Source: a virus. From it: a stretch of DNA of 53,056 nt. Both the position numbers and the translations under genes were made by a program. The notes beneath the pieces are model-generated. The model was not told where the DNA came from, did no database searches, and saw only the letters and a program-made list of their open reading frames with translations. This document shows, piece after piece, positions 2,110 through 38,509 of the stretch (its first letter is position 1; the number at the start of each line of letters is the position of its first letter). The stretch is from the IMG/VR virus record IMGVR_UViG_3300033074_002003. One strand, 5' to 3'.

Positions 2110-2112
2110 ATT

Positions 2113-5116: not shown

Positions 5117-5179
5117 ATTTCCCACTTGAGCGGTATGATGTGCCTACTATGGGCGACCGTACCAGGGGGAAGAACTGAC

Positions 5180-7751: not shown

Positions 7752-7792
7752 AGTTTGCCATTTCACGCTTACTTATCGTAGGTGGAAATCAA

Positions 7793-16933: not shown

Positions 16934-16947
16934 AGGAGGCGCACGTG

Positions 16948-19019: not shown

Positions 19020-19994
19020 TCAAAAGTGGCGTGTGCTGTCAAAATATGCAACGCTAGTTAGTGGCAGTGCATCATCATAAGTCACAATAGCGTCATCAGT
19101 GATTCTCAGCAGGTGCAATTTGTGTTCAACGAACCACAGTTCTTGAGCTCGATCTGTCTCATATTTCTTGACGATAGAATTTGATCGAGGATTCATCGAT
19201 TGTCGGTGTTCTTCTAATGGACGATCAAGTCCATGCCAATAGACACCGTCGAGTTGAATGTACGTGCCCGAGCTTCGGATCAGGAAATCGAACGACCATT
19301 GCTTCGGTGTCCCTGGAACGTAGACTTGTCTTTCGATGTCGTCAGCTCCGTATTGAGTACACAAGATCACATAGAGGAGATCTTCAGGTTTTGACTTGCG
19401 ATAAGTCCCATTTCGTTTCATAGTTTCGTGTGCACGTTTCGCGTGAGCAGCCCAATCTACTTTTGATTTGATCTCATCATTTCCAAGTGCAGATTTGTGA
19501 CCGTATCTGGCAAGATTTGTCTTGTGCATTTTCTCGATCGTTGAAGGGAGTTTGGATGTGTGTTCGACACCGTACTCGGCAAGCCAGCGAGCTTTTCTTC
19601 GATTCACGACGTCCGAATTTTTCATTGGGCTAATATCACCATATCGTTCTTCACACGTGTGTCTACGCTTTGTTTCTACTACGTCAGACTGTGTGTGATG
19701 TTCTGTTCCGTATCGAGCGAGTGATGTTTGACGTATCTTTTTGTCTAAGACATTGTTCTTTTTGTGCGCGTGTGAAACACACGTTCGTGAACAGAAATGA
19801 ATTTCTTTCTTCAAAATCGCTGTATAATGTGCAGCGCCCAAGTAATGTCGTTTGCACTGATTGCACTCGAGTTTTACCCGATAGTGTGTGGTTTGTTTAC
19901 CTGTTGGCGTAGTAACGGGCACCTCGATGACTTGGATGATCATTGTTCTGTGACTAAGTAATATGTAGCTAAGCAAAAATTTGCTGAGGAACAC
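19020..19994 (-). CDS. free-standing homing-endonuclease-like protein (Zn ribbon + 'xRYG' repeats + DUF559/Vsr-like PD-(D/E)XK nuclease domain)
   Basis: 'CNQCKRHY...CSRTCVSHAH'; four ~22-aa repeats (ARYGTEHHTQSDVVETK / EERYGDISPMKNSDVVNRRK / AEYGVEHTSK / ARYGHKSALGNDEIKSK); C-terminal 'SFDFLIRSSGTYIQLDGVYWH'; AT-rich island, opposite strand to neighbours. Confidence 0.6.
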   Translation of the reverse strand: MFLSKFLLSYILLSHRTMIIQVIEVPVTTPTGKQTTHYRVKLECNQCKRHYLGAAHYTAILKKEIHFCSRTCVSHAHKKNNVLDKKIRQTSLARYGTEHHTQSDVVETKRRHTCEERYGDISPMKNSDVVNRRKARWLAEYGVEHTSKLPSTIEKMHKTNLARYGHKSALGNDEIKSKVDWAAHAKRAHETMKRNGTYRKSKPEDLLYVILCTQYGADDIERQVYVPGTPKQWSFDFLIRSSGTYIQLDGVYWHGLDRPLEEHRQSMNPRSNSIVKKYETDRAQELWFVEHKLHLLRITDDAIVTYDDALPLTSVAYFDSTRHF

Positions 19995-19998: not shown

Positions 19999-21297
19999 AT
20001 GACCCACTTGTTGATTGCCCCACAGTATTCAAATTACAATCGTGATGGCATCTACATGCTTCATGCAGACTCAACCGCAAACATGACGTTCAACAAGCTT
20101 CGTGTCATGTTGCAACTCGATCCCGAATTCACGGCAGATGTTCTTGTCCCGCCGCGCGAGCTCACCCAGATTCAGCCCGAAGACCTGACAGCCTCGATTC
20201 CTGGTATCGAGCGGGTGACGTTTCTGAGGCATGGGCTCGCTCCCAACGCAGCCCGCACGCGCTACGATTTCCGGTACGAGGAGATGAAACAGATCCTCGC
20301 GAGTAGGGAAAAGTACACGCACGCGTACATCATGGATCCGATGCACGTGAGGAACTACAAGGCATTGTTCTTCCTCGAGCTGAAGTACATGCCGAAGATC
20401 GTGTGCAACTCTCACTTCATCGATGATCCCGACAATCCCGTCGTAGCGAAGGACATTCAGTACTGGTTCGGGCAGGTAGAGGGCCATGTGAAGGCTGACC
20501 TGAACGTCTGGCAGTGCAAATCTGCTCAGGATGTTTTCGAGCGCGCGGCGATCAAACACGGCCTCAATCCAGAGTTCGTCGAGGGACTCTCTGAGAAGAG
20601 CTACTGTTGGGACGCAGGGTACTCTCACTACGAGATGTCACAGCCCGTGAACGAGGTACTCGCGAGGAAGAGGTTCCTGCGCGATTTCAGTGACATCGAT
20701 CCAGACAAGTTCCGCGTCTTCGTTCCCAATCGCATGGGCGGGAAGATCAACGGCGTCGAGAGGTCGCTCGACTACACGAACGCCGGGAAATTTGTCCTCG
20801 AGGTGACGAACGACGTCTGGACCCGGCGACAGGATTTCGTCGTCATTGCCGGAAATCCGAACCAGAAGATTACGAACGCAGAGATCGAGGAGCGCGTCCC
20901 GGCGTACTTCAGGATGCTCCGCGACGGCACTTTTGAGCGCGAGGAGTATCGCTACGTCGCGAAGAAGTGTGACATCGTCGTGGGCGCGTTCACAGTCGAC
21001 TCTTACGGTGGGACGGCGTGGCGCGAGTGTGTCGACCAGGGGTGTATGCCAGTGCTCGCGGACTGTTACGAGCAGCACGTCATCCTCGAGGCGGCGCAGT
21101 GGCCGATGGAGATGCGCATTAGGCCCGATCTGAGTAATATGGCGTCAGCTCTCGAGGCGACGATGGACTACCTGCGATCTCTCGAGAAGCGCGGGCCGGC
21201 AAATCCGCTTCTCGACAGGATCAAGAAGATCGTTCGGGAGGAGTGCTCTTTCGAGGAGACGACCCGTCCCGCGATGGTCGCGATGGGAATGTTGTAG
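19999..21297 (+). CDS. GT-B fold glycosyltransferase
   Basis: C-terminal 'FVVIAGNPNQK...CDIVVGAFTVDSYGGTAWRECVDQGCMPVLAD' resembles GT4-type EX7E donor-binding domain. Confidence 0.5.
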   Translation: MTHLLIAPQYSNYNRDGIYMLHADSTANMTFNKLRVMLQLDPEFTADVLVPPRELTQIQPEDLTASIPGIERVTFLRHGLAPNAARTRYDFRYEEMKQILASREKYTHAYIMDPMHVRNYKALFFLELKYMPKIVCNSHFIDDPDNPVVAKDIQYWFGQVEGHVKADLNVWQCKSAQDVFERAAIKHGLNPEFVEGLSEKSYCWDAGYSHYEMSQPVNEVLARKRFLRDFSDIDPDKFRVFVPNRMGGKINGVERSLDYTNAGKFVLEVTNDVWTRRQDFVVIAGNPNQKITNAEIEERVPAYFRMLRDGTFEREEYRYVAKKCDIVVGAFTVDSYGGTAWRECVDQGCMPVLADCYEQHVILEAAQWPMEMRIRPDLSNMASALEATMDYLRSLEKRGPANPLLDRIKKIVREECSFEETTRPAMVAMGML

Positions 21298-21560: not shown

Positions 21561-21602
21561 CGGGTCGTGCTACGTTGCACTTCCCTGCTGAAACGGGGAA
21601 AG

Positions 21603-23174
21603 ATGCAGAAAATTACGAAGCGCGATTGGGTGAAGTACTTTCCGTTTGACGCACCCCGAAAGGACCAAGAGGAGTTCATCGACTTCGCCCTGAACGCGTT
21701 CATGCGCGAGGGGAAGCGTTTTGTGATCGGTGAGCTCCCGATGGGCATCGGCAAGTCTGCTGTCGCCGTGACGATCGCGCGCTACCTGGCGGCGACCGAT
21801 CCCCCGACAGAACTAGACGACGAGGGCGAACCAATCGTGACGCGCGGCGCGTACGTGCTCACGACACAGAAGATCCTGCAGGAACAGTACCTCGCCGACT
21901 TCCAGAAGTTCGACATGGAGTCGATCAAGTCGAGCTCCAACTACCAGTGCAGATTCTACACAGAGCAGAGCTGTGCGGAATCACTGAGGGTGCTCACAAA
22001 GCTTGAGAGCCGCATCATGGGCACTCCGTTTTTCAAACAGTGCAAGGGGGCGTGTGCCTACAAGGAAGCCAAACAGGTTTTTCTGAGGGCAGAGATGGGC
22101 TGCACGAACTTCTCGTACTTCCTCGCGGAAACGATGTACGGCGGTGCCCTCGTCCCGCGCCAGCTGCTCGTGATGGACGAGGCTCACAATGTCGAGGGCG
22201 AAGTAGCGAAATTCGTTGCGGTGAAGATCGACCCTACGTCAGATCGCGAGGTCGTGAAACTTCCCGTTCCGTCGTTCGCAGACCAGGGCGCGGCCTTCGA
22301 TTGGGTGCGTGCTACCTACATTCCCGCTGCGTTGAAGATCAAGGACAAGCTCACGAAGAAGATCGAGAAGGCCATCGCGAAAGAGGACAAGCCCTCTCGC
22401 TCGACGATGCGCGCGATGAAGGACAACGAGTCGCTCGACAAGCACATCTGCAAGCTCAATCGGTTCGTTGACTCGTACAACCCTCGCGACTGGGTGTTCA
22501 ACGCGGGAGAAAATACGATTGAGTTTAAGCCCGTTGACATCTCTCGTCACACGGACTTTCACCTCTTCAAGCACTCGCCGAAGATTCTGATGCTGTCGGC
22601 GACGATCCTCGATTTCGATTTCTACTGCGACACGCTTGGTATCGACAAGTCGCAGGCGGCGTTCAGAAGCTTTGACTCGCCGTTTGACGCGGCGAACCGT
22701 CCCATTCACTACGTTCCCGTGGGAAAGATGAACGCCGGTGAGATCGACAAGACGCTGCCCTCGCTCGTCGAGATGGTGCGCGAGATCATGAAGCAGCATC
22801 CCAAAGACAAGGGTGTGATACATTGCTTTGCGGGCGAAACACCAATAAAAGTAGTTGATGGGAGTGTCGTGTGTGAAAAACGAATCGACTCTCTCGTTAT
22901 CGGTGACGCTGTCATTACGTGGAATGAGATGGGCGGAAGGTTTGAGACGAGTTGTGTCGACGCTGTCATCGACAACGGGAATCTCGCGTGTGTTGAGCTT
23001 ACGTTTGACAACGGTCGTACACTTACGTGCACACCAGAACACGAATTCTTGACAAGGAATCGCGGTTGGGTTACTGCAGCTGATCTAGATGAAAAAGACG
23101 ACGTGATTGATACGTTGGATGATACATATATGAATGCCACCTCACATCCTTCCCAAGTTGTTTCGAATCGGTGA
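21603..23174 (+). CDS. Rad3/XPD/DinG-family helicase, N-terminal fragment (motifs I-II + FeS Cys cluster) ending in split-intein N-fragment (IntN, ~116 aa)
   Basis: 'FPFDAPRKDQ', Walker A 'GELPMGIGKS', 'LLVMDEAHN' (DEAH), 4 Cys 'YQCRFY...QSCAES...KQCKGACAYKEAK'; intein block A 'CFAGET' at 22824, block B 'TCTPEHEFLT'; stop after IntN. Confidence 0.8.
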   Translation: MQKITKRDWVKYFPFDAPRKDQEEFIDFALNAFMREGKRFVIGELPMGIGKSAVAVTIARYLAATDPPTELDDEGEPIVTRGAYVLTTQKILQEQYLADFQKFDMESIKSSSNYQCRFYTEQSCAESLRVLTKLESRIMGTPFFKQCKGACAYKEAKQVFLRAEMGCTNFSYFLAETMYGGALVPRQLLVMDEAHNVEGEVAKFVAVKIDPTSDREVVKLPVPSFADQGAAFDWVRATYIPAALKIKDKLTKKIEKAIAKEDKPSRSTMRAMKDNESLDKHICKLNRFVDSYNPRDWVFNAGENTIEFKPVDISRHTDFHLFKHSPKILMLSATILDFDFYCDTLGIDKSQAAFRSFDSPFDAANRPIHYVPVGKMNAGEIDKTLPSLVEMVREIMKQHPKDKGVIHCFAGETPIKVVDGSVVCEKRIDSLVIGDAVITWNEMGGRFETSCVDAVIDNGNLACVELTFDNGRTLTCTPEHEFLTRNRGWVTAADLDEKDDVIDTLDDTYMNATSHPSQVVSNR

Positions 23175-24001
23175 ATACACGCTTGACAAAACAACTCTTA
23201 CGCTACAACATCTCCATCAGCGCAAAGACAGTTCGGGTCGAAAGCGTCGGTTTGAATATCCTTGTGATGATTGTGGGAAGATTTACGTAACGAAGATCAA
23301 AGATGAGATCGGCAAACAACTTCCCTGGATTTGTCGAAGCTGCCGTTGCAAAAAAGAATGGCAAGATCCGCGCTACCGTGAAGCTATTCTAGCTGGATTC
23401 ACAGAGAAAACTCGTGAGGCACTGCGGGAATGTGGGAAGCGAAATATGCACAAGATGTGGAACGATCCCACAAAAAGAGCGGAATTGTGTGCGAAAGGGA
23501 AAGCGAGGGATCCAGAGTGTTATGCTCGCGCTGCACGGAGCTCTAAGAGATCGAACATTAGAATTCACTGGAAAACTGGACAAGAACTAGTTTGCGTCGG
23601 TGGTTATGAACTCGCATTTGTGAATTGGGCGAACGCAAATTTCATTGATTTTGATTGGCAGATTCCTCATGTCATGGAAAATGGGCGAAAGTACATCATA
23701 GATGCGTTCATAAAAACGGGTGAATTTGCAAATACGTGGATCGAAATAAAAGGAACTTGGAACAGGCAGAACGGGCACATCGGAAGAGAGAAGTGGGAAG
23801 CTTTTCACACAAAATACGCAAATTCTGCTTTGTGGATGCAACCGGACCTTGAAAATTTGGGTATTTTAGTTCGTGGTAAACCGAACAAGAGGTGGGAAAG
23901 TGAAATTGATTGCAAGGAAACAGGTGGGTCTGCGACGAGTATTTGACATTACGGTGCGCGGGACGCACACATTTGTCGCCGCTGACGCTGTAGTTCACAA
24001 C
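22824..24001 (+). mobile_element. naturally split intein (IntN 22824-23171, IntC 23900-24001) with intervening free-standing endonuclease gene
   Basis: IntN and IntC in different reading frames separated by stop codon and an independent ORF; IntC 'MKLIARKQVGLRRVFDITVRGTHTFVAADAVVHN|C' resembles DnaE IntC. Confidence 0.75.
23134..23946 (+). CDS. homing-endonuclease-like protein (CxxC Zn finger + PD-(D/E)XK-like core), paralog of 26444..27319
   Basis: 'YPCDDCGKIY...WICRSCRC'; 'RKYIIDAFIKTGEFANTWIEIKG' (D...ExK); AT-rich; start codon uncertain. Confidence 0.5.
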   Translation: MPPHILPKLFRIGEYTLDKTTLTLQHLHQRKDSSGRKRRFEYPCDDCGKIYVTKIKDEIGKQLPWICRSCRCKKEWQDPRYREAILAGFTEKTREALRECGKRNMHKMWNDPTKRAELCAKGKARDPECYARAARSSKRSNIRIHWKTGQELVCVGGYELAFVNWANANFIDFDWQIPHVMENGRKYIIDAFIKTGEFANTWIEIKGTWNRQNGHIGREKWEAFHTKYANSALWMQPDLENLGILVRGKPNKRWESEIDCKETGGSATSI

Positions 24002-24430
24002 TGCCACTCATACAAGATTCTGAACGCTCTTCGCGATGGGATCAAAGACAAGCGCCTCCTCTTTCAGACCTCCGGCGACGTCCGCGACAAGATCCTGCAG
24101 GAACACGCGCTCACCGATGCTCCCACGGTGCTCGTCTCGCCCTCGATGACAGAGGGCGTCGACCTGAAGGACGACCTCTCGCGGTTCCAGATCTTCTGCA
24201 AGGTGCCCTTCCCGTACCTCGGAGACGAGTACTGCAAGCGCAAGATGAGCCGAACACCCGATTGGTACCCGTACGTCACCGCACGCACGATTATCCAGGC
24301 TTCCGGGCGCTCGATCAGGAACTCGTCAGACTGGGCTGTGACGTACATGCTCGACGGGAGCTTTGACTGGTTCTACAGGCAGAACAAGCGTTTCTTCCCG
24401 GAGTACTTCAAGAAGTCCGTACACATGTAA
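23900..24430 (+). CDS. split-intein C-fragment (35 aa) + helicase C-terminal fragment (motifs IV-VI)
   Basis: GAGGTGG SD 4 nt before GTG 23900; 'VVHN|CHSYKIL', 'SMTEGVDL', 'QASGRSIRNSSDW' (motif VI). Confidence 0.75.
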   Translation: MKLIARKQVGLRRVFDITVRGTHTFVAADAVVHNCHSYKILNALRDGIKDKRLLFQTSGDVRDKILQEHALTDAPTVLVSPSMTEGVDLKDDLSRFQIFCKVPFPYLGDEYCKRKMSRTPDWYPYVTARTIIQASGRSIRNSSDWAVTYMLDGSFDWFYRQNKRFFPEYFKKSVHM

Positions 24431-26443: not shown

Positions 26444-27319
26444 TTGTTAGACGGTGATGACACAACTGATTCATCGAACATAGTTAAAGCTATGAGCAAA
26501 TTTGTTGGTCACTTTAAGTGTGAATTTTGTCTGGAAGACTTCGAAAAAGAAGTGCATTCGAGTGCGAAGAAAATGCCACGATTTTGCAGCAAATCGTGTG
26601 GTAGCAAGTGGCTACACGCAAATGGCAAAAAGTGTACACTAAACAGCAAGACGACATACGAATGGTGGATTGAAAAACACGGACAAGAAGAAGCTGATAG
26701 ACGATTTAGTGCTTGGAGACAAAAGATCTCAGAGCGTACGTCTGGCGAAAACAATGCGATGTTTGGTAAGCACGCACACACTCACGGGTTGAAAAAATAC
26801 GCGTTCGAAAAGACGGGTAAGTCACTCGAACAGATCCATGGTGTTGAGCTAGCAAAAGATATCAAGCATAGAGTCTCAGTGAGTATGACGGGCGAAAACA
26901 ATCCTGCGTACGGGAAAGTATATCCAAATGCGGGACGATCTGTCAAGGGTCACTATAAAGGCATCTTCTTCCGAAGTCTATTTGAGTACTCGTTCTTGAA
27001 GCACCTGGAGTCAATAGGAGTCGAGTTGACAGACGTAAAGTGTGAATCGTTCAGGATTCCGTATGCTGAGGGCAGAACGTACATACCTGATTTTTATGTT
27101 CCTGAACACAAAACTGTTTACGAGGTGAAACCCTCGTCTTGGCACACTAACACAACAGTGATTGCAAAATGTGAAGCTGCAAAGAGATTTCTGGCTGAAA
27201 AGGGACTTGAGTTCAAGATGGTCACCGAGCTTGATTTCCCGAAGATACGCTTCGACGAAGCACGCAAAGATCCAAACGTAGTTTGGAAGGAGAAGTCATT
27301 TGAGCACTTCAAGAAGTAA
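26444..27319 (+). CDS. free-standing homing-endonuclease-like protein (Zn finger + PD-(D/E)XK), paralog of 23134..23946
   Basis: 'FKCEFCLEDF...RFCSKSCGSKW'; 'RTYIPDFYVPEHKTVYEVKPSSW'; AT-rich island. Confidence 0.55.
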   Translation: MLDGDDTTDSSNIVKAMSKFVGHFKCEFCLEDFEKEVHSSAKKMPRFCSKSCGSKWLHANGKKCTLNSKTTYEWWIEKHGQEEADRRFSAWRQKISERTSGENNAMFGKHAHTHGLKKYAFEKTGKSLEQIHGVELAKDIKHRVSVSMTGENNPAYGKVYPNAGRSVKGHYKGIFFRSLFEYSFLKHLESIGVELTDVKCESFRIPYAEGRTYIPDFYVPEHKTVYEVKPSSWHTNTTVIAKCEAAKRFLAEKGLEFKMVTELDFPKIRFDEARKDPNVVWKEKSFEHFKK

Positions 27320-27848
27320 GATCATCATACTCGACGGACCCGATCGCTGCGGCAAAACAGAGATTGGCAAAGCTCTCGCACGAATACTTGATTGTAATTA
27401 CTTCAAAAATGACGTCGAGCGCCAGATGTTCGGCTCTTCAGAAGAGTACTTCCTAGGCGCGATTCGCTACGGTCTCCCGCACATTCTCTCTCTTCTGAGA
27501 CAGTCTGAGTTCGGGTTGGTCCTCGATCGTAGCTACCCATCAGAGTGGGTATATTCTCGAGCTTTCAATCGGCCCACAGACGAAGACGCAATCAGGCTGT
27601 GCGACGCTCAGTTCGCAGAGCTCGGCGGGCACGTCGTGATCACGAGGAGGAAATCTTACGAGGGGATCGTAGACGACACACACCCTCACCTCGTCAACAC
27701 AGAGATGCTGAAGAAGCTCGACGGGCTTTACGAGGAGTTCGCTGCGCAGTGTATTGCTCCCTGTCACACGATTTTCGTTGACGACGAGAATTTGAATCGA
27801 GAAGTCGATGAGATTCTCTCCAAGATCGAAGGATGGACAGATGACTGA
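27300..27848 (+). CDS. P-loop deoxynucleoside/deoxynucleotide kinase (Tmk/dNK-like)
   Basis: 'IIILDGPDRCGKTEIGKALARIL' Walker A in dNK/Tmk context, 182 aa. Confidence 0.55.
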   Translation: MSTSRSKIIILDGPDRCGKTEIGKALARILDCNYFKNDVERQMFGSSEEYFLGAIRYGLPHILSLLRQSEFGLVLDRSYPSEWVYSRAFNRPTDEDAIRLCDAQFAELGGHVVITRRKSYEGIVDDTHPHLVNTEMLKKLDGLYEEFAAQCIAPCHTIFVDDENLNREVDEILSKIEGWTDD

Positions 27849-28089
27849 CGAGGGCGACGCAGACTCTGGGATGAGGGAAGCACTTGAGATGTGCTTCAAC
27901 ATGGCATATGGGACGGCGATCGATATCGCTGAGAAGCAACCGGGCGTGAGCGCGCTCTACGTCGAATCGCAGGCGAAGACTGTGATGCGCGCCGCGCTTC
28001 AGGCGACGGGTCTCTTCTCGCCGAGCGAGATCGACATGCACGTTGATTCGATCACCGTGAGAAATGCTGCAGAGAGGGATTCGTCGTGA
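27808..28089 (+). CDS. hypothetical protein
   Basis: 93-aa ORF overlapping kinase 3' end; weak. Confidence 0.25.
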   Translation: MRFSPRSKDGQMTDEGDADSGMREALEMCFNMAYGTAIDIAEKQPGVSALYVESQAKTVMRAALQATGLFSPSEIDMHVDSITVRNAAERDSS

Positions 28090-28940
28090 GCGAATACGTC
28101 AGGTCACAAGACGCGTGCGCTTTCATTGAGTCGTTGGAGGACGCGTCTGTCGGTCTTGTCCTGATTGACCCGCCGTACTACGGCATCGTTGACGATTCGT
28201 GGGACAACCAGTGGGCGTCAGAGGACGACTACGTGAGCTGGCTGTCTGTCATGTGTTACGCCGCGCGAAAGAAGCTGACGCCGACCGGATCGCTGCTCGT
28301 ATTCGGCGGTGTTGGGAAGCACGGTTCGCACCCGTTCTTCAGGGTCATTTCGGAGCTTGAGAAGAAGTTCCACTTTCGCAACCTGATCACGTGGAAGAAG
28401 AGGCGTGCCTACGGGAAGAAGTTCAACTATCTTCATTGTCGGGAGGAAATTGTTTGGTATTCCAAATCAAGTGTAGAGTCAGAAGTGACTTTTAACATTC
28501 CATATCTCACTGAAAAGCGCGGGTATGCAGGATTTAACAAGAAATATCCAGCGAAAAGTCCCTATTATCGAGTCTCTAACGTCTGGGCAGATATTGGCGA
28601 ACTAATGCGTCCCAAGCGTACTGCTGAAAAACCCATACCCCTTCTGGAGAGGTTGATACTCACACATTCAAATCCCAATGATCTTGTTGTTGATTTTTTT
28701 GCAGGGACGGGCTCCACGGGCGTGGCGGCACTGAAGAACGGTCGCAGATTTCTTGGCTGTGATATGGACAACACTGCTGTACAAATGGCAAATGCGCGCT
28801 GCATTTCTGTTTACGATTCAACTAGTTATCATCATGGCGCGAACACAGAAGACAGTAATTTATGTGTATCTGATCCTATGCAAGATCAACAACAAGAGAT
28901 ATGTGGGGATCACTGCAAAAACAGTACAGAAAAGATTTAA
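28086..28940 (+). CDS. DNA methyltransferase, beta-class (DPPY first; N6-adenine or N4-cytosine)
   Basis: 'LVLIDPPYYG' motif IV near N-terminus, 'VVDFFAGTGSTG' motif I near C-terminus; 3' ~35 codons overlap the GIY-YIG gene. Confidence 0.7.
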   Translation: MSEYVRSQDACAFIESLEDASVGLVLIDPPYYGIVDDSWDNQWASEDDYVSWLSVMCYAARKKLTPTGSLLVFGGVGKHGSHPFFRVISELEKKFHFRNLITWKKRRAYGKKFNYLHCREEIVWYSKSSVESEVTFNIPYLTEKRGYAGFNKKYPAKSPYYRVSNVWADIGELMRPKRTAEKPIPLLERLILTHSNPNDLVVDFFAGTGSTGVAALKNGRRFLGCDMDNTAVQMANARCISVYDSTSYHHGANTEDSNLCVSDPMQDQQQEICGDHCKNSTEKI

Positions 28941-29655
28941 GCGTCACCTACGTGACGCTGCGAACGGGTGTCAAAACGCACTGCATCGAGCGATACGAGC
29001 ACATGGAGTTGAGAATTTCGAGTGTCAATCGCTCGAAATTTGTTCGTCTTGGGAAGAAGCCTGTCAACGTGAAATAGTGTTGATTCGTGAACTTCAAACA
29101 CGTGTCGAACAACACGGTTACAACATGACTGACGGAGGCGAAGGGGGATGGGGATTGCAGTGGTCGCTAGAAGCTCGAGCAAGACAGAGTGCTATTCACA
29201 AAGGGTTACACACTCGAGATAAGCTGAGCTCTGAAACGTTGAAGAAGATGAGTGATGCTCGAAAAGGTAAACCGATGAACGATGAGCAAAAACGAAAACT
29301 TTCGATCTGGAACACTGGTCGCAAACACACTGAAGAAGCTAAGCAAAAGATGGCTGATTCACATCGTGGCTCTAAACGCACAGAAGCTACGAAACAGAGA
29401 ATGCATGAAAGCAGTCCACACAAAAAACGTGTTGTGCAATTTGCTACTGATGGAACGACATTGTCTGTGTACCCATCTATGAAAATTGCTGCGCGTATCA
29501 CAGGCGTTGCACACGCAAATATTAGTGCATGCTGTCATGGCAGGAGACCACGCGCTGGTGGATTTGGATGGTGCTTTGAAAATATCAATACACTGACTGA
29601 GCAAGTCATAGAATTAGTCAATTCGAGGTGTGTGGAAGCTGCGGGAGGTGCGTGA
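28834..29655 (+). CDS. GIY-YIG homing endonuclease with NUMOD3-like repeats and C-terminal DNA-binding module
   Basis: 'VIYVYLILCKINNKRYVGITAK' GIY-YIG; repeats 'SETLKKMSDARKGKP / DEQKRKLSIWNTGRKHT / EEAKQKMADSHRGSKRT'; 'VVQFATDGTTLSVYPSMKIAARITG'; AT-rich. Confidence 0.75.
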   Translation: MARTQKTVIYVYLILCKINNKRYVGITAKTVQKRFKRHLRDAANGCQNALHRAIRAHGVENFECQSLEICSSWEEACQREIVLIRELQTRVEQHGYNMTDGGEGGWGLQWSLEARARQSAIHKGLHTRDKLSSETLKKMSDARKGKPMNDEQKRKLSIWNTGRKHTEEAKQKMADSHRGSKRTEATKQRMHESSPHKKRVVQFATDGTTLSVYPSMKIAARITGVAHANISACCHGRRPRAGGFGWCFENINTLTEQVIELVNSRCVEAAGGA

Positions 29656-30593
29656 TGTCAAAGAAGGCGTGGGTCACCGGCGGCGCCGGTTTCATTGGAA
29701 GTCACCTCGTCGATCGCCTCGTGCGGGAGAACTATGACGAGGTGATCGTTGTCGATGATTTCTCGAGCGGAGATCCCAAGAATCTCGCGAAGAGTCACGG
29801 GCTGGTGAGGCTCTACACCGAGGATTTTGCCTCTGATAGGACGTTGAAGCTCCTCGCAGAAGAGAAGCCAGACGTGGTATTTCACCTCGCCGCTCGGCCT
29901 CGCGTTGCTTACTCCGTCGAACACCCGGCGGAGACGAACGAGGTGAACGTGCAGAAGTCATTGCGTCTCCTCGAGGCGTGCCGCGACGCGCACGTAAGGA
30001 GATTTGTCTTCTCGTCATCTTCGTCTGTTTATGGCGGTGCAGACGAGCTACCGACGCCAGAAGAGTATCCGAAGGATCCGAAATCACCCTACGCGCTCCA
30101 GAAGTCGGTGATCGAGGACTACTGTCGGATGTTCTCGTCGCTCTACGACATGGACACTGTCTGCCTGCGATACTTCAACGTGTTCGGTCCCAGGGCAAAG
30201 GGCGACGGCGCGTACGCGACTGCAGTCAGCGCCTGGATCTCAGCGATCAAGTCTGGGAAGCCCGCGCGGTCCGACGGAGACGGTACGCAATCGCGTGACA
30301 TGTGCTACGTCGCGAATGTCGTTGACGCAAACATTCGCGCAGCACAGTCATCGTATGATTTTGTCGGTGACACGTTCAATGTTGCGTGTCAAGACAAGGT
30401 GACAAACAACGAGATCCTCGAGTACCTGAAGAAGAAGTTTGACTTCTCGATTGTTCACGCTCCGGAGAGGTTGGGTGACGTGAAGCACACGTGCGCTGAC
30501 ATTACCAGGGCAAAGATGATCCTGGGCTACTATCCCATGATTCGTTTCTGGGACGGGCTTGCTATGACACTCGAGGCAGAGGGGCTCAAGTGA
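29655..30593 (+). CDS. NAD-dependent nucleotide-sugar epimerase/dehydratase (GalE/WbpP-like)
   Basis: GGGAGGTG SD; 'AWVTGGAGFIGSHLVDRL', 'SSSSSVYG', 'SPYALQK' (YxxxK); ATGA overlap with HEG stop. Confidence 0.7.
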   Translation: MSKKAWVTGGAGFIGSHLVDRLVRENYDEVIVVDDFSSGDPKNLAKSHGLVRLYTEDFASDRTLKLLAEEKPDVVFHLAARPRVAYSVEHPAETNEVNVQKSLRLLEACRDAHVRRFVFSSSSSVYGGADELPTPEEYPKDPKSPYALQKSVIEDYCRMFSSLYDMDTVCLRYFNVFGPRAKGDGAYATAVSAWISAIKSGKPARSDGDGTQSRDMCYVANVVDANIRAAQSSYDFVGDTFNVACQDKVTNNEILEYLKKKFDFSIVHAPERLGDVKHTCADITRAKMILGYYPMIRFWDGLAMTLEAEGLK

Positions 30594-30728
30594 GAGCCGC
30601 GCTCTTCTTCGTCCTCATTGTCCTGCTGGGAATGCCGGATTCCCGTGGGACGAGCGACGACTGCGGAGCGTGGGACAGCGCTGACAAGAGTTCTGAACAA
30701 TAGCTCACCTGTGGGATAGAAATACGCA

Positions 30729-31712
30729 ATGAGATCATTCAGTTCGTTCAATGATGCTTTCGCGGGTCTCGTAGACGAGGTCTGGAACCATCACACGTAC
30801 GTCTCGCGCCCACGCGGGCAGACAGTGAAAGAGAAGCTCGCTGTTCAGTTTTCGATCACCGACCCGCGCAGGCGCCTCCTCACGATTCCCGAGCGCGACG
30901 CGTCTCTCTGCTATGTCATCGCCGAATCGCTGTGGTACCTCCTCGGCAGCGACAAGACGGAGTGGATTGCGAACTATTCTGCCTTCTGGAAGAATATTTC
31001 GGATGATGGGGTTACCGCTAACTCAGCGTACGGCTCTAGAATTTTCAAGAGGCATCCAAAGGTGGCTGGTGGCCGCCTGACGCAGTGGGATTACGTCAAA
31101 GAGGAGCTGAAGAAGGACCCCGACTCGCGGAGGGCTGTCGTACTCATTCGCACGCCCGATGATTCGATCGACGCGCAGCTCGACGTTCCCTGCACGCTCT
31201 CGCTGCAGTTTTTTATCCGCGACGGGAAGCTACACCTCGTTTCGACGATGCGATCGTCCGATCTCATCCTAGGAATCACCAACGACATCCCGGCGTTCTG
31301 CCTCTTCCAGGAACTTCTTGCCCGCGACCTCGGTGTGGAGCTGGGTACGTACACACACACGAGCAACTCACTTCACGTCTACGAGAGGCACTTCCCGATG
31401 TGTGAGACGATCGCATCTAGGAAGCGGGGAGTGCCCTACTCTGTTGCGCTTCCACCGCTACCGCCGGGTGAAATCCCTGTCGCGCAGGTGGACAGGGTAC
31501 AGGAAGTCGCTAGATCGATTACCACACCCGCTGGCCTGGAGCAGTTCTACAACACGGGCCTTCACTTCATCATGGACGGACAGGATCCGTACTGGTGTGA
31601 CTGGGCGAAGATTCTCGTCGCGCACCGTGCTGGGAAGCTCGGTGAACCGCAGATGATGGCCGACATGATCGCTGGCACAGAATTTACGGGCTATCACGCC
31701 TTCAAGAAGTGA
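30729..31712 (+). CDS. thymidylate synthase (ThyA) family enzyme (thymidylate synthase or deoxypyrimidylate hydroxymethylase)
   Basis: 'DVPCTLSLQFFIRDGKLHLVSTMRSSDLILGITNDIPAFCLF' aligns to ThyA 'LPPCHALFQFYV...QRSADVFLGVPFNIASY'; catalytic Cys present, His after Cys replaced by Thr. Confidence 0.7.
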   Translation: MRSFSSFNDAFAGLVDEVWNHHTYVSRPRGQTVKEKLAVQFSITDPRRRLLTIPERDASLCYVIAESLWYLLGSDKTEWIANYSAFWKNISDDGVTANSAYGSRIFKRHPKVAGGRLTQWDYVKEELKKDPDSRRAVVLIRTPDDSIDAQLDVPCTLSLQFFIRDGKLHLVSTMRSSDLILGITNDIPAFCLFQELLARDLGVELGTYTHTSNSLHVYERHFPMCETIASRKRGVPYSVALPPLPPGEIPVAQVDRVQEVARSITTPAGLEQFYNTGLHFIMDGQDPYWCDWAKILVAHRAGKLGEPQMMADMIAGTEFTGYHAFKK

Positions 31713-31719
31713 GGAAAGA

Positions 31720-32301
31720 GTGAAAAGAGCACCAGAATTTATCGTGGCGACGGGCCCGATGTTCTCGAACAAGACGACGTTCCTCCTGTCTTATGTCGAG
31801 AAGTGCAAGTATCAGAAGAAGAAAGTAATCGCCTTCAAACCGAAGAAGGATAATCGCTATGGCGAAGATGAGATCGTTTCGCACAACGGTTGGAAGATTC
31901 CGGCACACGTGATAGAGACGGGTGACGACATCATTCGAATGCTCGCTTCAGATGATGTTGTGTACGATGTGATCGCGATCGATGAACTGTTCATGGTTCC
32001 GGGCGCCGCGACTGCGCTCATTTGGGCATTTCGTAGCGGCATCTCAGTCGTCGCGTCTACTCTTGACCTGTCGTCTCGCTGCAAGAGCTTTGCGGAGGTG
32101 AAGAAGATTCTTCCGTGGGCGACAAAGATCATAAAGTGTACTGCTGTCTGCGAAGTGTGCGGCGCAGACGCTCGATACACACACATGAAGGCAGATCTCG
32201 AGGGTACGGGTGAGATTTTTGTGGGTGGAGCGAGCGAGTACGAGCCACGCTGTGCAGTTCATCACCCGTACTTCCATGAGGTCACAAATGACATCCCGTG
32301 A
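31720..32301 (+). CDS. tdk: thymidine kinase
   Basis: 'ATGPMFSNKTTFLL' P-loop, C-terminal Zn ribbon 'CTAVCEVCG...CAVHH'. Confidence 0.85.
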   Translation: MKRAPEFIVATGPMFSNKTTFLLSYVEKCKYQKKKVIAFKPKKDNRYGEDEIVSHNGWKIPAHVIETGDDIIRMLASDDVVYDVIAIDELFMVPGAATALIWAFRSGISVVASTLDLSSRCKSFAEVKKILPWATKIIKCTAVCEVCGADARYTHMKADLEGTGEIFVGGASEYEPRCAVHHPYFHEVTNDIP

Positions 32302-32743
32302 CGAAGAACACGACATTGTGCGCCCGTCGTGGGACGAGACATGGATGATCATGGCAACGGCCGTGTCACACAGGTCACACGATCCGAAGTTCAAGGTGGG
32401 TTGCCTCGTTGTGTCTGACAAGAACACACACGTACTCAGTGTGGGCTACAATGGAGCGCCGCCCGGGTGGCCGCACGTTCGCGACTCTGACGAGCCCGGA
32501 AAGAGCGGCTTCATTCACGCTGAGGCAAACTGCCTCATCAAGATGAACTTCAACGACCCAGCAAAGAAGATCATGTACGTGACACTGTCGCCGTGTGCCG
32601 ACTGTGCGCGGCTAGTCGTAGCGGCTGGGATCGAAGAGGTTGTCTACATGTCGTGCTACAGGGACATGTCGGGCCTCGATGTCCTCGCGCGGAGTGGCAT
32701 CCCATTCAGGCAGTTTGAGCCCGAGCGAAAGATTGTTTTCTGA
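32288..32743 (+). CDS. dCMP deaminase
   Basis: 'HAEANCL' and 'SPCADCA' zinc-binding CDA motifs; GAGG SD; overlaps tdk 3' end. Confidence 0.8.
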   Translation: MTSRDEEHDIVRPSWDETWMIMATAVSHRSHDPKFKVGCLVVSDKNTHVLSVGYNGAPPGWPHVRDSDEPGKSGFIHAEANCLIKMNFNDPAKKIMYVTLSPCADCARLVVAAGIEEVVYMSCYRDMSGLDVLARSGIPFRQFEPERKIVF

Positions 32744-32794: not shown

Positions 32795-33079
32795 ATGGCG
32801 AAGACACTTACAGACACTGACGTGCTGCGCATCATCAAAGAAGAGTGGGAGAAGCTCATCTCAGAGGTTGACGGAGAGCTCGACGTTCTCTTCAAGCCAA
32901 AGAAGGGCACGTCCGAGATAGACGTGATCAGTCCCGAGCTCAAAGTGATGCACAAGAAATCAGGATTTCGCTACACCGTCGACGCGACGTCCACAAACAC
33001 AGTGACGCTGCGAACCCCAGAGGGCGATCACCTAGACGTGACGCACGAAGAGTTCGAAAATGACTACCAGCTCGACTGA
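32795..33079 (+). CDS. hypothetical protein
   Basis: 94-aa ORF. Confidence 0.4.
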   Translation: MAKTLTDTDVLRIIKEEWEKLISEVDGELDVLFKPKKGTSEIDVISPELKVMHKKSGFRYTVDATSTNTVTLRTPEGDHLDVTHEEFENDYQLD

Positions 33080-33098
33080 TGTCTTGAAAGGAAAGAAC

Positions 33099-33785
33099 AT
33101 GTCAGAAGACATCATTAAGAAGGCAATTGAGGGAGCGATTCCCGATTTCTACGCGGCGGATGCTGCCTCACTGACCGAGGCGTACGTCGCGCAGCCGAAG
33201 CACTACGACCTTCCGGCTGAGTCTGTGAGCCAGCAGACGAAAGAGGCTCACCTCGAGCTCTACAACGGCTACGTTGAGTCACTCAATCGCGTCGCGGCGG
33301 AGCTAGAAGCCGTCCAGCGCGTAGAGGCGAATAGTAGATCGTCACGTTACCGTTCTTTGAAGCAGGACGAGACGTACCTTCTGAACGCGACATACCTCCA
33401 TGAGCTCTACTTTGCGAACGGGTTCGATCCTTCGTCTGACGTCTATGAGAGCTCACTCGCTTGTATGAGGCTGTCACGAGACTGGGGAGATTTCGATCGC
33501 TGGCAGCGCGACTTCTATGCCTGTGCGCTGTCCGCGCGCGAGGGGTGGGTCGTCACCGGATTCAACACGTTCCTCAAGAAGTACGCGACGGTGTTCATCG
33601 ATGGACACTCTGCGAGCGTTCCCGTCGGATTCTACCCGACGATTGTCGTTGACATGTGGGATCACGCGTCGAAAGACTTTTCCGACAAAAGAGAGTATAT
33701 TGTGTCTCAGATGCGAGAGCTCAATTGGGATGTCATCGAAGAGAGATTTCTCCGTGCCGAGAAGATTGCGGAGGCTGTAAAGTGA
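33099..33785 (+). CDS. Fe/Mn superoxide dismutase-like protein (divergent)
   Basis: AAAGGAAAG SD; N-terminal 'QQTKEAHLELYNGYVESLN', 'ATYLHELYFAN', 'GWVVTGFN', C-terminal 'PTIVVDMWDHAS' align to SOD His/His/Asp/His ligand positions. Confidence 0.5.
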   Translation: MSEDIIKKAIEGAIPDFYAADAASLTEAYVAQPKHYDLPAESVSQQTKEAHLELYNGYVESLNRVAAELEAVQRVEANSRSSRYRSLKQDETYLLNATYLHELYFANGFDPSSDVYESSLACMRLSRDWGDFDRWQRDFYACALSAREGWVVTGFNTFLKKYATVFIDGHSASVPVGFYPTIVVDMWDHASKDFSDKREYIVSQMRELNWDVIEERFLRAEKIAEAVK

Positions 33786-36257: not shown

Positions 36258-37430
36258 ATGTCAGGCATGGTCGTCACTGAGACAGCTGTAAGAAGCATCA
36301 TTTGTGAACTTCTGAGGAGTGACGTGCCCGCTGTCTCCAACGAGCTGCCTTTTCAGGATAACGGCTGTCCCATAGACGTCAATTCTGAGATCGACACGAC
36401 ATACCGCGCTTTCGATGGGACGTACGAGATCCCAGTCGGGACTGATATCGTTCCACACGATAAACGTGAACTCGAGGCGGTAATTAAAGCATTCTTAGTG
36501 GGCGTTCCGAACACAAGTGTTCCGAAGCTCTTTCACAAGATACAGCGCGCGTTTGATGAAGTCGCAGATGACGACGAGGGAGTTCCGATGAAGAAAGTGA
36601 ATGCCAACCCGATGCAGGGAAAGAACATTGAGGAGTCGATCCGTAAGGCCATCAGGAAGCTCCTTGAGGGTCCTGAGATGAAGAGCGCCCTCAATTTTTC
36701 CGGGTATGACGTCGGCGGCGATTCTGACGATGACGAGCCCCTGAAAAGGAAGCGCGACATCAATCTCGCAGACAAGTCAGATCCGAGTCGCCTGACATAC
36801 GCGCAGCTCGCAAAGAAGCGCGGCGAGCTGGATGCCAAGAAGTCAAGCATGTCGCCTGAGGAGCTCGCAGCGGCTACGCGTGAGCTTGACGACGAAGATC
36901 CCCGCGAGATGTCACACGACGAGATGCTCCCGTACATGGGACATGCTGGCGTCACAGGTGTGAAGGGCGAAGAGTACAAGACGATCCAGAAGGCGAAGTT
37001 CCTCGCAGACATGGACCCGCAGACACGTTCCAAGCTGATCGGCACCGCTCGCGACGAGTACGTGCAGTTCCTCGCTGACGGCGGTGACCTTGAACCAGAA
37101 GAGGTCGACATGCTGAAGAAGCACCCGGCCGCTGTCGAGGAGCTCGAAGGGTTCCGCGACTGGCTCGATGCCTACGTGTGGAACGACCTAGAGGCAGCAG
37201 ATCCCGTCCACTACATCCCGGGCAAGGAATACGACGCGATCCGCGCCGACAAACAAGCGAAGGGCATCGAGCCCGCGTGGCCAAAGGGTCCGAAGGGCGA
37301 GCCTGTCCACAAGAAGGGCGATTGGACAGACAAGCAGCGCGCGCAGGCAGCAAATTCGGTTCGCGATCGCGAAAAAGAGCGTAACAAAGAGAAGAAGGCA
37401 GCTGACAAGGCGACCAAGAAGGGCGAGTGA
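36258..37430 (+). CDS. hypothetical highly charged protein
   Basis: 390 aa, D/E/K-rich, no motif. Confidence 0.45.
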   Translation: MSGMVVTETAVRSIICELLRSDVPAVSNELPFQDNGCPIDVNSEIDTTYRAFDGTYEIPVGTDIVPHDKRELEAVIKAFLVGVPNTSVPKLFHKIQRAFDEVADDDEGVPMKKVNANPMQGKNIEESIRKAIRKLLEGPEMKSALNFSGYDVGGDSDDDEPLKRKRDINLADKSDPSRLTYAQLAKKRGELDAKKSSMSPEELAAATRELDDEDPREMSHDEMLPYMGHAGVTGVKGEEYKTIQKAKFLADMDPQTRSKLIGTARDEYVQFLADGGDLEPEEVDMLKKHPAAVEELEGFRDWLDAYVWNDLEAADPVHYIPGKEYDAIRADKQAKGIEPAWPKGPKGEPVHKKGDWTDKQRAQAANSVRDREKERNKEKKAADKATKKGE

Positions 37431-37433: not shown

Positions 37434-38171
37434 ATGGGTCTCGGGGGAGCTATCGCAGCGGCGCAGTTTGCTCCCGTGCAAGGAGACCTGTCGCACAATA
37501 TAGGGATCGCGCTTCAGATTTCGTTTGAGGCAGCACTCGCCGGCGCGAAGCTTGTCGTGCTACCAGAGCTCTGCGTTTCTGGGCCCGACATCTTCAGCGT
37601 AAAAGAGGCCTCACGGGCGGCCCAATCTTCTATGGGTTGGCAGACGCGCGAGTTCCAGAATATCGCTTCTTCGGCGGGAATCTACATCCTCTTCGGCTAT
37701 GTCGAGGCCGCAGAGGGCAACTTCTACAACTCCTGCGCTCTGGTGGGTCCAGATGGGTCTGTTCACAACTTCAGGAAGCGAAACCTCTGGAGCTCTGATT
37801 TCTTCTGGGCCACGTCATCATCTGACGAGCGCGGTGAGATCGCTGTCACACCGCTGGGACGCATCGGAGCGCTGATCTGTCGCGATGTGCAGAACAGAGA
37901 CAGGAAATCTGTCGATGGTACGGGACAGCCATATTACGCGCGTGGAAGTGTTGACATCGTGTGTGTCCCGGCGAACTGGAGTACTGCTGCAGAATTTCCG
38001 CATCACGAGTGGGTTGAGCTCGCAGAAGAGACGCGCGCCACAGTTGTCGTCGCGAACAGGTGCCCTGAGCTTGACGATCCGCACGTCGGTGGATCGTGCA
38101 TCATAAGCCCGACACTCGAAGTAATCGTGGGTGACAAGTATACAGCGTGCATCGTGGGAGCATTTCTATGA
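37434..38171 (+). CDS. carbon-nitrogen hydrolase (nitrilase superfamily)
   Basis: E 'VVLPELC', K 'FRKRNLW', C 'GALICRDV' catalytic triad spacing. Confidence 0.65.
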   Translation: MGLGGAIAAAQFAPVQGDLSHNIGIALQISFEAALAGAKLVVLPELCVSGPDIFSVKEASRAAQSSMGWQTREFQNIASSAGIYILFGYVEAAEGNFYNSCALVGPDGSVHNFRKRNLWSSDFFWATSSSDERGEIAVTPLGRIGALICRDVQNRDRKSVDGTGQPYYARGSVDIVCVPANWSTAAEFPHHEWVELAEETRATVVVANRCPELDDPHVGGSCIISPTLEVIVGDKYTACIVGAFL

Positions 38172-38509
38172 GGACAGAGACACCGATCACTGTTCGGGAG
38201 AAAGCACCGGCTCCCCTACGACCCACGATGCGCTGGGTGTCAGCGCCCGAGGGATCTCTCTACAAGAAGTTCGTCTTCAAGTCGACAGAAGAGAGGAATC
38301 GCTTCATTGTTGACATTCTCGAGTACGAGCGTGTCTGTGGACACTCGGCAACAATGAAGATCGCCGAGGGATGTGTCATGATGTCGCTGATCACACATGA
38401 CATCGGTGTCGTGACCGAGCTTGACAAAGAATTCGCTCGCGAGGCAGATGTTGTGTACAAGGACGTGACGGAGACGTATATTTCGAGCCATGACAACTGG
38501 CTTGGATGA
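38168..38509 (+). CDS. pterin-4a-carbinolamine dehydratase (PCD/DCoH)-like protein
   Basis: 'CGHSATMKIAEGCVMMSLITHDIGVVTELDKEFA' matches PCD core; ATGA overlap with upstream gene. Confidence 0.5.
   Translation: MRTETPITVREKAPAPLRPTMRWVSAPEGSLYKKFVFKSTEERNRFIVDILEYERVCGHSATMKIAEGCVMMSLITHDIGVVTELDKEFAREADVVYKDVTETYISSHDNWLG

Follow-up and report, generated by a model that had tools for sequence, protein, structure and literature searches.

The T4- and RB69-type pathways of cytosine modification are well described, and homologues of thymidylate synthase (TS, ThyA) with Asp in place of Asn177 are already known, where encoded beside deaminase genes, to mark cytosine-modified contigs in metaviromes (bioRxiv 10.1101/2024.12.05.627091). 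The DNA of RB69, DLP3 and Thanatos carries arabinosyl-5-hydroxycytosine and that of RL38J1 hexosyl-5-hydroxycytosine (Lee et al., NAR 2026, PMC13326640). Since the 'arabinosyl-5-hydroxymethylcytosine' of RB69 has been reassigned to 5-hydroxycytosine (5hoC), a pentosyl- or galactosyl-5-hydroxymethylcytosine (5hmC) would be a new base. Here a set of genes is described from a 53,056-nucleotide stretch of viral DNA (IMG/VR record IMGVR_UViG_3300033074_002003; hereafter the window), among them a ThyA homologue, a P-loop kinase and a glycosyltransferase (GT). The set is read, with reasonable but far from full confidence, as a T4-style pathway by which a DnaE-type jumbo phage would replace cytosine with glycosyl-5hmC, using enzymes from different lineages.

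A sequence-only reading of the window had named a base-modification gene set at 27300–32743, consisting of a ThyA-family enzyme, a deaminase of deoxycytidine monophosphate (dCMP; other nucleotides are abbreviated likewise), a thymidine kinase, a P-loop kinase and sugar-nucleotide genes. All were found there with Pfam, PHROGs and NCBIfam. The uridine diphosphate (UDP)-glucuronate decarboxylase (UXS), the GT-B fold enzyme (by AlphaFold2 and Foldseek) and the two Nudix hydrolases (PF00293) that it had added are likewise present, outside that interval. The window genes assigned to the pathway are as follows.

30729–31712, + strand: ThyA-family enzyme of 327 residues in a MilA-like long form, predicted dCMP hydroxymethylase (5hmdCMP synthase); PF00303, E = 9e-28
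27300–27848, + strand: P-loop nucleotide kinase, similar to Tmk and deoxynucleoside kinases (dNK), of the RB69 gp45 type, predicted 5hmdCMP kinase; phrog_761 'thymidylate kinase', E = 3e-13; no Pfam match
19999–21297, + strand: glycosyltransferase of GT-B fold, 432 residues, predicted DNA 5hmC glycosyltransferase; fold model; no Pfam, PHROG or NCBIfam match
29655–30593, + strand: nucleoside diphosphate (NDP)-sugar 4-epimerase of the short-chain dehydrogenase/reductase type, WbgU/WbpP/TviC/GalE-like, predicted supplier of the sugar donor; PF01370, E = 3e-59
11236–12219, + strand: UXS, which makes UDP-xylose, accessory; E = 2.7e-92 to human UXS1
32288–32743, + strand: zinc deaminase of the dCMP/dCTP-deaminase family (HAE...PCADC); PF00383, E = 6e-21; ComEB, E = 8e-14
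31720–32301, + strand: thymidine kinase (Tk); PF00265, E = 1e-31; NF003296, E = 3e-39

The ThyA homologue

The sequence-only reading had pointed to a retained catalytic Cys, a PCT in place of the PCH of TS, and an ITNDIPA segment. These were confirmed in the motifs LDVPCTLSLQ and LGITNDIPAF. Among solved structures in the Protein Data Bank (PDB), the best relative of the ThyA homologue was MilA, the CMP 5-hydroxymethylase of mildiomycin synthesis (E = 8e-47, with an alignment spanning residues 3–264), as against 2e-22 for true TS; T4 gp42 was not among the 60 best solved matches listed. The NCBIfam models of TS all scored far under their cut-off (92 bits vs 327).

The protein was aligned with E. 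coli ThyA, T4 gp42 and RB69 gp48 (genome records), MilA (printed alignment), the 5-methyl-dCMP (5mdCMP) synthase of Xp12 and its own 120 closest homologues, the Xp12 class being represented by this single reference sequence. In E. coli ThyA numbering, which is used throughout, Glu58, Trp80, Tyr94, Arg126, Arg127, Asp143, Cys146, Thr147, Arg166, Ser167, Asp169, Gly173, Asp177, His207 and Tyr209 are invariant in the query and in 120/120 homologues. The catalytic Cys146 is thus kept together with Glu58, Tyr94, His207 and Tyr209 of the TS superfamily, and the query is identical to T4 gp42 at E58, Y94, R126/R127, D143, C146, T147, S167, D169, D177, H207 and Y209. The TS-type residues N177, H147 and L143 are replaced by Asp, Thr and Asp, respectively.

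Four of these sites, counting 126 and 167 as one, have been characterized in related enzymes; the fourth, position 169, is taken up further below. The Asp of ITND aligns with gp42 D179 and MilA D186 at the position of E. coli N177, where the change from Asn to Asp switches specificity from uracil to cytosine (PMC13326640; PMC5175136). The Asp three residues before the catalytic Cys in LDVPC corresponds to gp42 D145 and E. coli L143; gp42 Asp145 activates the water that forms the hydroxymethyl group, and D145N is inactive (PMC6400193). Arg126 and Ser167, read in DSRRAV and MRSSD, occupy the positions of MilA Lys133 and Ala176. The pair confers a preference for deoxynucleotides, as the MilA variant A176S/K133R loses all activity on CMP and retains that on dCMP (PMC5175136). 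The signature of Asp177, Asp143, Arg126/Ser167 and Asp169 gives the enzyme the pattern of a putative dCMP hydroxymethylase of the gp42/MilA kind, and not that of a TS, a dUMP hydroxymethylase, or a 5mdCMP or 5-hydroxy-dCMP (5hodCMP) synthase. MilA and BcmA, the CMP 5-hydroxymethylases of nucleoside-antibiotic synthesis, share its length class as well as D143, T147, D169 and D177, and MilA is its closest solved relative. The phage enzyme differs from them in the Arg126/Ser167 pair predicted to make it deoxy-specific, whereas MilA with Lys133/Ala176 prefers ribonucleotides, and it belongs to a context of phage DNA replication rather than of antibiotic synthesis.

With cytosine and deoxy specificity, a water-activating Asp and Asp169 all kept, the predicted base is 5hmC and not 5-hydroxymethyluracil (5hmU), and the predicted product is 5hmdCMP, formed with release of tetrahydrofolate (THF). 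No dihydrofolate reductase (DHFR) was seen in the approximately 63 kb inspected (the window and upstream sequence of strain variants), which lends indirect support to an enzyme releasing THF rather than dihydrofolate; within the window itself, neither DHFR nor a canonical TS was found. The view that the enzyme is of the hydroxymethylase type is therefore upheld by the alignment with E. coli ThyA and T4 gp42. Of the two substrates that had been left open, dUMP or dCMP, only dCMP fits the Asp found at the N177 position in the query and every homologue.

Position 169 also bears on the route of RB69, DLP3 and RL38J1, in which a flavin- and O2-dependent synthase would make 5hodCMP and the GT would glycosylate 5hoC through an ether bond. 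The accessory logic is the same: those phages and Thanatos share with the present one a MilA-like ThyA homologue, an adjoining gp45-type kinase, a GT-B with the same kinds of template, a dCTPase and an unusual UDP-sugar made by the phage. MilA was reported as the best solved match of RB69 gp48 as well, and pentose-nucleotide genes are present in the window. Nevertheless, the experimentally validated marker of the 5hodCMP synthases of RB69, DLP3, Thanatos and RL38J1, D169N (PMC13326640), is absent. Positions 80, 169 and 173 are W, D and G in the query and A, N and V in RB69 gp48, so hydroxymethylation rather than flavin-dependent hydroxylation is predicted. Moreover, the pentose route here, with UXS and 4-epimerase, is unrelated to the arabinose-5-phosphate isomerase, kinase, uridylyltransferase and phosphatase, or the UDP-galactopyranose mutase, of those phages. 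A 5hoC route is thus regarded as very unlikely.

The kinase

The kinase carries the P-loop GPDRCGKT and a Tmk-like DR motif, DRSYPSEWVY, which fits DR(Y/S/G). It matched RB69 gp45 by BLASTP (4e-8) and with a family profile (2e-12), and the same profile matched the phage's own canonical Tmk less well (7e-8). In the RB69 genome record, gp45 is a 'nucleotide kinase' whose gene adjoins that of the ThyA homologue. A PDB sequence search with the kinase returned generic P-loop matches only. The sequence-only reading had allowed for phosphorylation of either the modified nucleotide or the modified base in DNA. Homology to gp45 and likeness to Tmk and dNK point to a modified mononucleotide as the probable substrate, and the second of these targets is not favored.

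The kinase is also where a 5hmU route has to be weighed, in which the ThyA homologue would act on dUMP, or the deaminase would make 5hmdU nucleotides, and the kinase would phosphorylate 5hmU in DNA for substitution. P-loop kinases acting on 5hmU in DNA are reportedly found in thymidine-hypermodifying phages (Lee et al., PNAS 2018). Some TS-linked phage deaminases convert 5hmdCTP to 5hmdUTP in vitro (bioRxiv 10.1101/2024.12.05.627091). However, the invariant Asp177 excludes dUMP as the preferred substrate; the presence of Tk, a ThyX-like enzyme and a canonical Tmk speaks for the retention of thymine; the kinase resembles mononucleotide kinases and the gp45 of RB69, a phage without a phosphorylated DNA intermediate; and genes for amino-acid or polyamine transferases were not seen. 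As a route to the main modified base, 5hmU is extremely improbable, and partial formation of 5hmU may occur given deaminases that act on 5hmdCTP.

An exhaustive search yielded about 400 representative clusters of the kinase family. Apparent kinase fusions were considered as a Rosetta-stone clue to function and rejected, the partners being homing endonucleases inserted upstream, with no informative enzymatic domains. In the window, the start of the kinase gene is overlapped by a gene for a TnsA-like and NUMOD3 endonuclease (26444–27319). Endonucleases of the GIY-YIG, NUMOD3 or TnsA-like kind also recur in other phages, either ahead of members of this kinase family or fused to them. The kinase gene is therefore a recurrent homing target.

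The glycosyltransferase

The GT was modelled with AlphaFold2 from 42 homologues (predicted local distance difference test score 94.7, predicted template modelling score 0.90). Searched against the PDB with Foldseek, the model returned GlgM, MshA (3c4q), sucrose-phosphate synthase, glycogen synthase and OtsA at E-values of 1e-10 to 1e-8. Of its 386 matches at E<=1e-3, the best 50 listed are nearly all GT-B enzymes or the structurally related UDP-GlcNAc 2-epimerases. In BFVD, phage GTs were matched; the neighbors there include the GT of SP-15 as well as uncharacterized proteins from Serratia phage Muldoon, Acinetobacter phage KARL-1 and Shigella phage SSE1. MshA 3c4q has been reported as the template of the RB69 DNA arabinosyltransferase, and sucrose-phosphate synthases have likewise been reported as templates, for the enzymes of RB69 and DLP3 (PMC13326640). 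At the sequence level, no similarity was detected to T4 α-gt, β-gt or the RB69 gp46:47 region.

A single GT was found in the window. Two further open reading frames (ORFs) were considered as a second GT and rejected, neither matching the GT profile: 36258–37430, which is highly charged and of low complexity, and 5126–6394, which has a nucleotidyltransferase-like motif.

Conserved linkage in related loci

An IMG/VR scan with the family alignment gave 80 loci and exact look-up a further three, so that 83 were compared. The clade was defined as the 69 of these 83 with a ThyA homologue of at least 42% identity, and genes were counted within 10 kb. The 4-epimerase gene occurs in 65/69 loci, in 40 of them directly beside the ThyA-homologue gene. 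Kinase and DnaE genes occur in 55/69 and 58/69, respectively. In 46/69, a GT gene lies on the same strand within 300 nt of the kinase gene. The deaminase occurs in most of the clade (67/83 over all loci compared), and over all loci Tk was counted in 44, ThyX in 12 and a gp56-like dCTPase in 39, including strain variants L092 and L093 of the window phage. UXS was found in only five of the 69 loci, and all five occurrences are within the clade. One marine relative (Tara) has its genes arranged as DnaE, kinase, GT, ThyA homologue, epimerase, Tk and deaminase, with the gp56-like dCTPase and ThyX just upstream.

Two families account for the GT encoded beside the kinase, that of the window enzyme and a second, GT4-like one, and they exclude each other. 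This non-orthologous exchange at a fixed position next to the kinase and hydroxymethylase is hard to explain without a shared pathway, and it is the strongest in-silico argument for one.

The exchange also bears on the most serious rival explanation, namely that the DNA contains 5hmC or plain cytosine without glycosylation, that the GT-B, epimerase and UXS act on an envelope polysaccharide or virion protein, and that their proximity reflects shared early expression. Such enzymes are typical of polysaccharide synthesis, and in the window the GT gene is separated from the kinase gene by about 6 kb, and UXS from the ThyA-homologue gene by about 19 kb. Nevertheless, across the 69 loci, which come from diverse environments, the epimerase adjoins the ThyA homologue and the GT stays within 300 nt of the kinase at the frequencies given above, even as the GT family is swapped. 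A sugar target other than DNA is accordingly considered unlikely.

Two other features recur at these loci. A Fe/Mn superoxide dismutase C-terminal domain (33060–33785 in the window; PF02777, 2e-9) is encoded just downstream of the deaminase in 62/69. At 37434–38509, the gene of a carbon-nitrogen hydrolase (PF00795) precedes that of a pterin-4a-carbinolamine dehydratase-like protein (PF01329). Many relatives keep this pair some 7 kb downstream of their ThyA-homologue gene, and it has no obvious link to a folate-dependent hydroxymethylase.

The sugar donor

The 4-epimerase matched PDB entry 6dnt, WbgU and WbpP at 1e-57 to 1e-50, and the NCBIfam models of TviC (6e-53) and GalE (2e-47). In its motif GDVKHTCAD, the Thr aligns with the Ser of GDVRHSQAD in WbgU. 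According to the gatekeeper model of GalE (Tyr299 in E. coli, Cys307 in humans), N-acetylated substrates are admitted when the residue at this site is small; the alignment is offered as a lead only. Since a glucose donor would need no epimerase, a galacto-configured sugar, such as galactose (Gal), N-acetylgalactosamine (GalNAc) or its uronic acid (GalNAcA), is the simplest reading for the clade.

The match of UXS to human UXS1 covers residues 8–322, its full length. With five occurrences against 65 for the 4-epimerase, UXS is accessory, and a pentose is therefore one candidate among several. A promiscuous 4-epimerase could turn the UXS product, UDP-xylose, into UDP-L-arabinose. A pentose is thus possible in the window phage and in the handful of relatives that bear UXS, and is not the default of the clade. 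Overall, the candidates are a galacto-type hexose, an N-acetylhexosamine or a pentose, and the sugar is probably not glucose. Searches of the literature for a UXS or 4-epimerase, whether in jumbo phages or in the hypermodification of phage cytosine, gave no result.

Source phage and strain-variant contigs

The window is phage-like, with nearly all genes on the + strand and a G+C content of 50–59%. A near-identity DNA search against 50,697 phage records gave no matches. Its DnaE-type polymerase gene (12466–16065) encodes a protein with at most 28% identity to that of any isolate in INPHARED (tblastn), so the phage has no cultured relative with known DNA chemistry. At least 24 metagenome contigs, from several projects and up to 305,889 bp long, encode the exact ThyA-homologue protein, and a contig of 329,329 bp encodes the exact GT protein. 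The window comes from a jumbo phage of about 300 kb that encodes DnaE and has not been cultivated.

Two strain-variant contigs add 9 kb upstream of the window start. L093 overlaps window positions 1–5297 at 98.3% identity, and L092 overlaps in two segments at 95–97%. In L093 the upstream genes run from DnaB, truncated where the locus ends, through ribonucleotide reductase, a ThyX-like gene and a canonical thymidylate kinase (Tmk; PF02223) to a gp56-family protein. Two of these upstream genes are relevant to the pathway.

L092:3639–4625 and L093:4476–5300, some 4 kb ahead of window position 1: ThyX-like gene; low-scoring match to Pfam Thy1
L093:6120–6572, about 2.5 kb upstream of the window: T4 gp56-type dCTPase of 150 residues; BLASTP 6e-6 to gp56; clade profile against gp56, 1e-16

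Searches of the window for a gp56 homologue and for the ThyX of the marine relative found neither, the best ORF in the gp56 search having an E-value of 0.07. The ThyX-like protein has THRxxSxxxxSxR where the canonical motif is RHRxxSxxxxSxR, and the ThyX of the marine relative (L010:548–1282) has the canonical form. In that relative, genes for HhH-GPD and Fpg/Nei-type DNA glycosylases (L010:2150–3371) adjoin ThyX and the gp56-like dCTPase and may be of interest together with a modified cytosine.

The thymidylate branch and the deaminase

As judged from these genes, the phage would have its own thymidylate branch, comprising the deaminase, the ThyX-like enzyme, Tmk and Tk, and in addition the second, non-Tmk kinase. 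The dCMP deaminase more likely feeds this branch, by analogy with T4. The sequence-only reading had noted that it makes dUMP. This dUMP would not feed the ThyA homologue, made cytosine-specific by Asp177.

The deaminase is also the main ground for a 5-methylcytosine (5mC) route of the Xp12 type, in which 5mdCMP would be made, the deaminase would convert part of the 5mdCTP to dTTP, and the GT and sugar genes would serve elsewhere. Xp12 likewise encodes an N177D TS homologue beside a gene of the dCMP-deaminase family. Pairs of this kind are often 5mC systems (5/7 tested; bioRxiv 10.1101/2024.12.05.627091), and the deaminase is tightly linked in the related loci. However, the Xp12 methylase has Asn143 and Pro147, with an adjoining DHFR gene, whereas the window enzyme has Asp143 and Thr147 (E. 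coli TS, Leu143) and no DHFR was found in the approximately 63 kb inspected. The loss of hydroxymethylation in gp42 D145N also speaks against 5mC. No GT or kinase was present in the Xp12 stretch inspected around the TS homologue. A GT kept beside the kinase would have no acceptor on 5mC, and thymidylate would already be supplied by the ThyX-like enzyme, Tmk and Tk. The 5mC route is highly improbable.

Proposed pathway

From the gene content, active-site signatures, GT-B fold, homologies and conserved linkage observed here, we infer the enzyme activities, the incorporation of the modified nucleotide, the glycosylation of DNA and the nature of the sugar. The gp56-like dCTPase would return dCTP to dCMP, which the ThyA homologue would convert to 5hmdCMP using methylene-THF and the Asp-activated water. 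The RB69 gp45-type kinase would then make 5hmdCDP, and host nucleoside diphosphate kinase the triphosphate, to be incorporated by the phage DnaE polymerase. Finally, the GT-B enzyme would glycosylate 5hmC in DNA with a UDP-sugar from the adjacent 4-epimerase, UXS possibly adding UDP-xylose or UDP-L-arabinose in the window phage. The deaminase, Tk, ThyX-like enzyme and Tmk would meanwhile keep the dTTP branch running. The proposal that the window holds a base-modification kit with a glycosylated hydroxymethylpyrimidine as its likely end product is thereby supported, with a separate ThyX-like enzyme and Tmk upstream.

The logic is that of T4, and the kit is close to complete by that standard: common to both phages are a gp56-family dCTPase, a ThyA homologue bearing the signature of gp42, a kinase for nucleotides, a GT-B enzyme, a dCMP deaminase and Tk. 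The parts nevertheless differ. The hydroxymethylase is of the long MilA-like form, the kinase resembles Tmk and gp45 rather than T4 gp1, and the GT has no detectable sequence similarity to α-gt or β-gt. A ThyX-like gene stands in place of Td, and Frd is absent from the sequence inspected. The dedicated 4-epimerase, with or without UXS, implies that the sugar donor is not UDP-glucose, a ubiquitous compound. The phage itself is a DnaE-type jumbo phage unrelated to Straboviridae.

Several points weigh against this pathway. The rules for D143 and D169 are empirical and rest on a modest number of assayed enzymes. In sequence, the ThyA homologue is nearer to MilA than to gp42, and it has an uncharacterized C-terminal extension of about 95 residues. 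The role of RB69 gp45-type kinases is itself putative in the literature. The GT-B fold is generic, and DNA as the predicted acceptor rests on conserved linkage to the kinase and the ThyA homologue. In the window phage, the GT does not adjoin the kinase. Between the two lie a helicase with an intein, several further genes and a homing endonuclease, and between kinase and epimerase another homing endonuclease and a methyltransferase; the modification module is loosened in this phage. The gp56-like dCTPase is encoded outside the window, in the strain variants, and the DNA inspected, about 63 kb, is a fraction of the ~300-kb genome. Both the clade and the phage are known from sequence alone, and the nearest isolates are too distant to inform on its DNA. 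With these points set against the active-site signature and the conserved linkage, glycosyl-5hmC is still held to be the more probable outcome.

Other genes of the window

Further genes touch on nucleotide metabolism, DNA methylation or gene mobility.

40896–41342, + strand: Nudix hydrolase 1; PF00293, E = 1e-22; kept downstream of the cluster in several relatives
48278–48712, + strand: Nudix hydrolase 2; PF00293, E = 3e-16; weak MutT, NudG and NudI-type matches
16909–17193, + strand: candidate small all-alpha MazG/HisE-like NTP pyrophosphatase of 94 residues; motif and fold
28086–28940, + strand: N6/N4 DNA methyltransferase; PF01555, E = 1e-38; present in 1/83 related loci
9169–9720: homing-endonuclease-type gene, HNH
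19020–19994, − strand: homing-endonuclease-type gene, DUF7487
26444–27319: homing-endonuclease-type gene, TnsA-like and NUMOD3
28753–29655: homing-endonuclease-type gene, GIY-YIG and NUMOD

The MazG-like protein named in the sequence-only reading is most probably 16909–17193, the weakest item of that set. Its EExEE...ExxD motif is invariant in 10 homologues, and the top Foldseek matches were PRA-PH (2a7w, 1yvw) and MazG (3cra, 1vmg), with a probability of 0.99 but an E-value of about 0.1. The Pfam PRA-PH match is below cut-off (E = 0.019; 15.8 bits vs 21.3), and a profile search against the PDB gave an E-value of 0.55. The protein is unrelated to T4 gp56 and absent from the flanks of the relatives.

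The N6/N4 methyltransferase represents a DNA modification of its own, which the clade has not conserved. A second methyltransferase, of the MT-A70 type, is encoded at 8524–9153. Besides the C5 pathway, the phage thus probably has an independent methylation of adenine or of N4 in cytosine.

The helicase between GT and kinase (21567–24430) is of the XPD/DEAD_2 type and is split by an intein, with Intein_splicing/Hint matches at the end of 21567–23174 and the start of 23873–24430 and an insert ORF of 270 residues at 23134–23946; in a relative (L009), the helicase is an uninterrupted 555 residues. An RNA-repair-like set (888–1817, 5126–7751 and upstream in L092 and L093) includes a polynucleotide kinase-phosphatase in the window and, upstream in the variants, an RNA ligase and an RlaP nucleotidyltransferase. 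Within it, 5126–6394 carries the nucleotidyltransferase-like motif DIDVMIP and 6327–7751 an HxGH-type nucleotidyltransferase segment. The product of 17321–18040 matched phrog_4806 'histidyl tRNA synthetase' (2e-35) with no Pfam match, and may be a class II aminoacyl-tRNA synthetase-like or HisZ-like catalytic core. Proteases are encoded at 4188–4898 (ClpP family) and 46374–47144 (papain-family cysteine protease). As for the GT, Pfam, PHROGs and NCBIfam gave no match for 36258–37430 (390 residues), 7748–8266 and many small ORFs.

Novelty and significance

No description was found in the searchable literature of this clade, of a deoxy-specific MilA-like hydroxymethylase, of its fixed association with a 4-epimerase (in some members with UXS), or of the two interchangeable GT families. 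It had been suggested that a pentose on the hydroxymethylpyrimidine would be a new DNA modification. Pentosylated cytosines are already known, and the novelty narrows to a pentose or other non-glucose sugar on 5hmC. More tentatively, and at rather less than an even chance, a global clade of uncultivated DnaE jumbo phages from marine and other metagenomes might carry 5hmC with a galacto sugar (Gal or GalNAc), or with a pentose (xylose or L-arabinose) in the members with UXS, attached by either GT-B family.

The deoxy-specific MilA-like hydroxymethylase, the new DNA glycosyltransferases and possibly modification-selective deaminases would be useful reagents for epigenetic sequencing, and the residue rule set (positions 143, 147, 167, 169 and 177) could be used to sort ThyA homologues in metaviromes. 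Bases of this kind determine sensitivity to restriction, CRISPR and type IV systems, and they also bias metagenomic sequencing and assembly. The pairing of hydroxymethylase with 4-epimerase, the occasional UXS and the swapping of GTs point to a diversity of sugars on 5hmC that would parallel that on 5-hydroxycytosine. If the proposed pathway is correct, the T4 paradigm, in which dCTP is excluded, dCMP is hydroxymethylated and the base is glycosylated in DNA, would have been rebuilt from unrelated lineages in a large, environmentally widespread group of giant phages without a cultured member.

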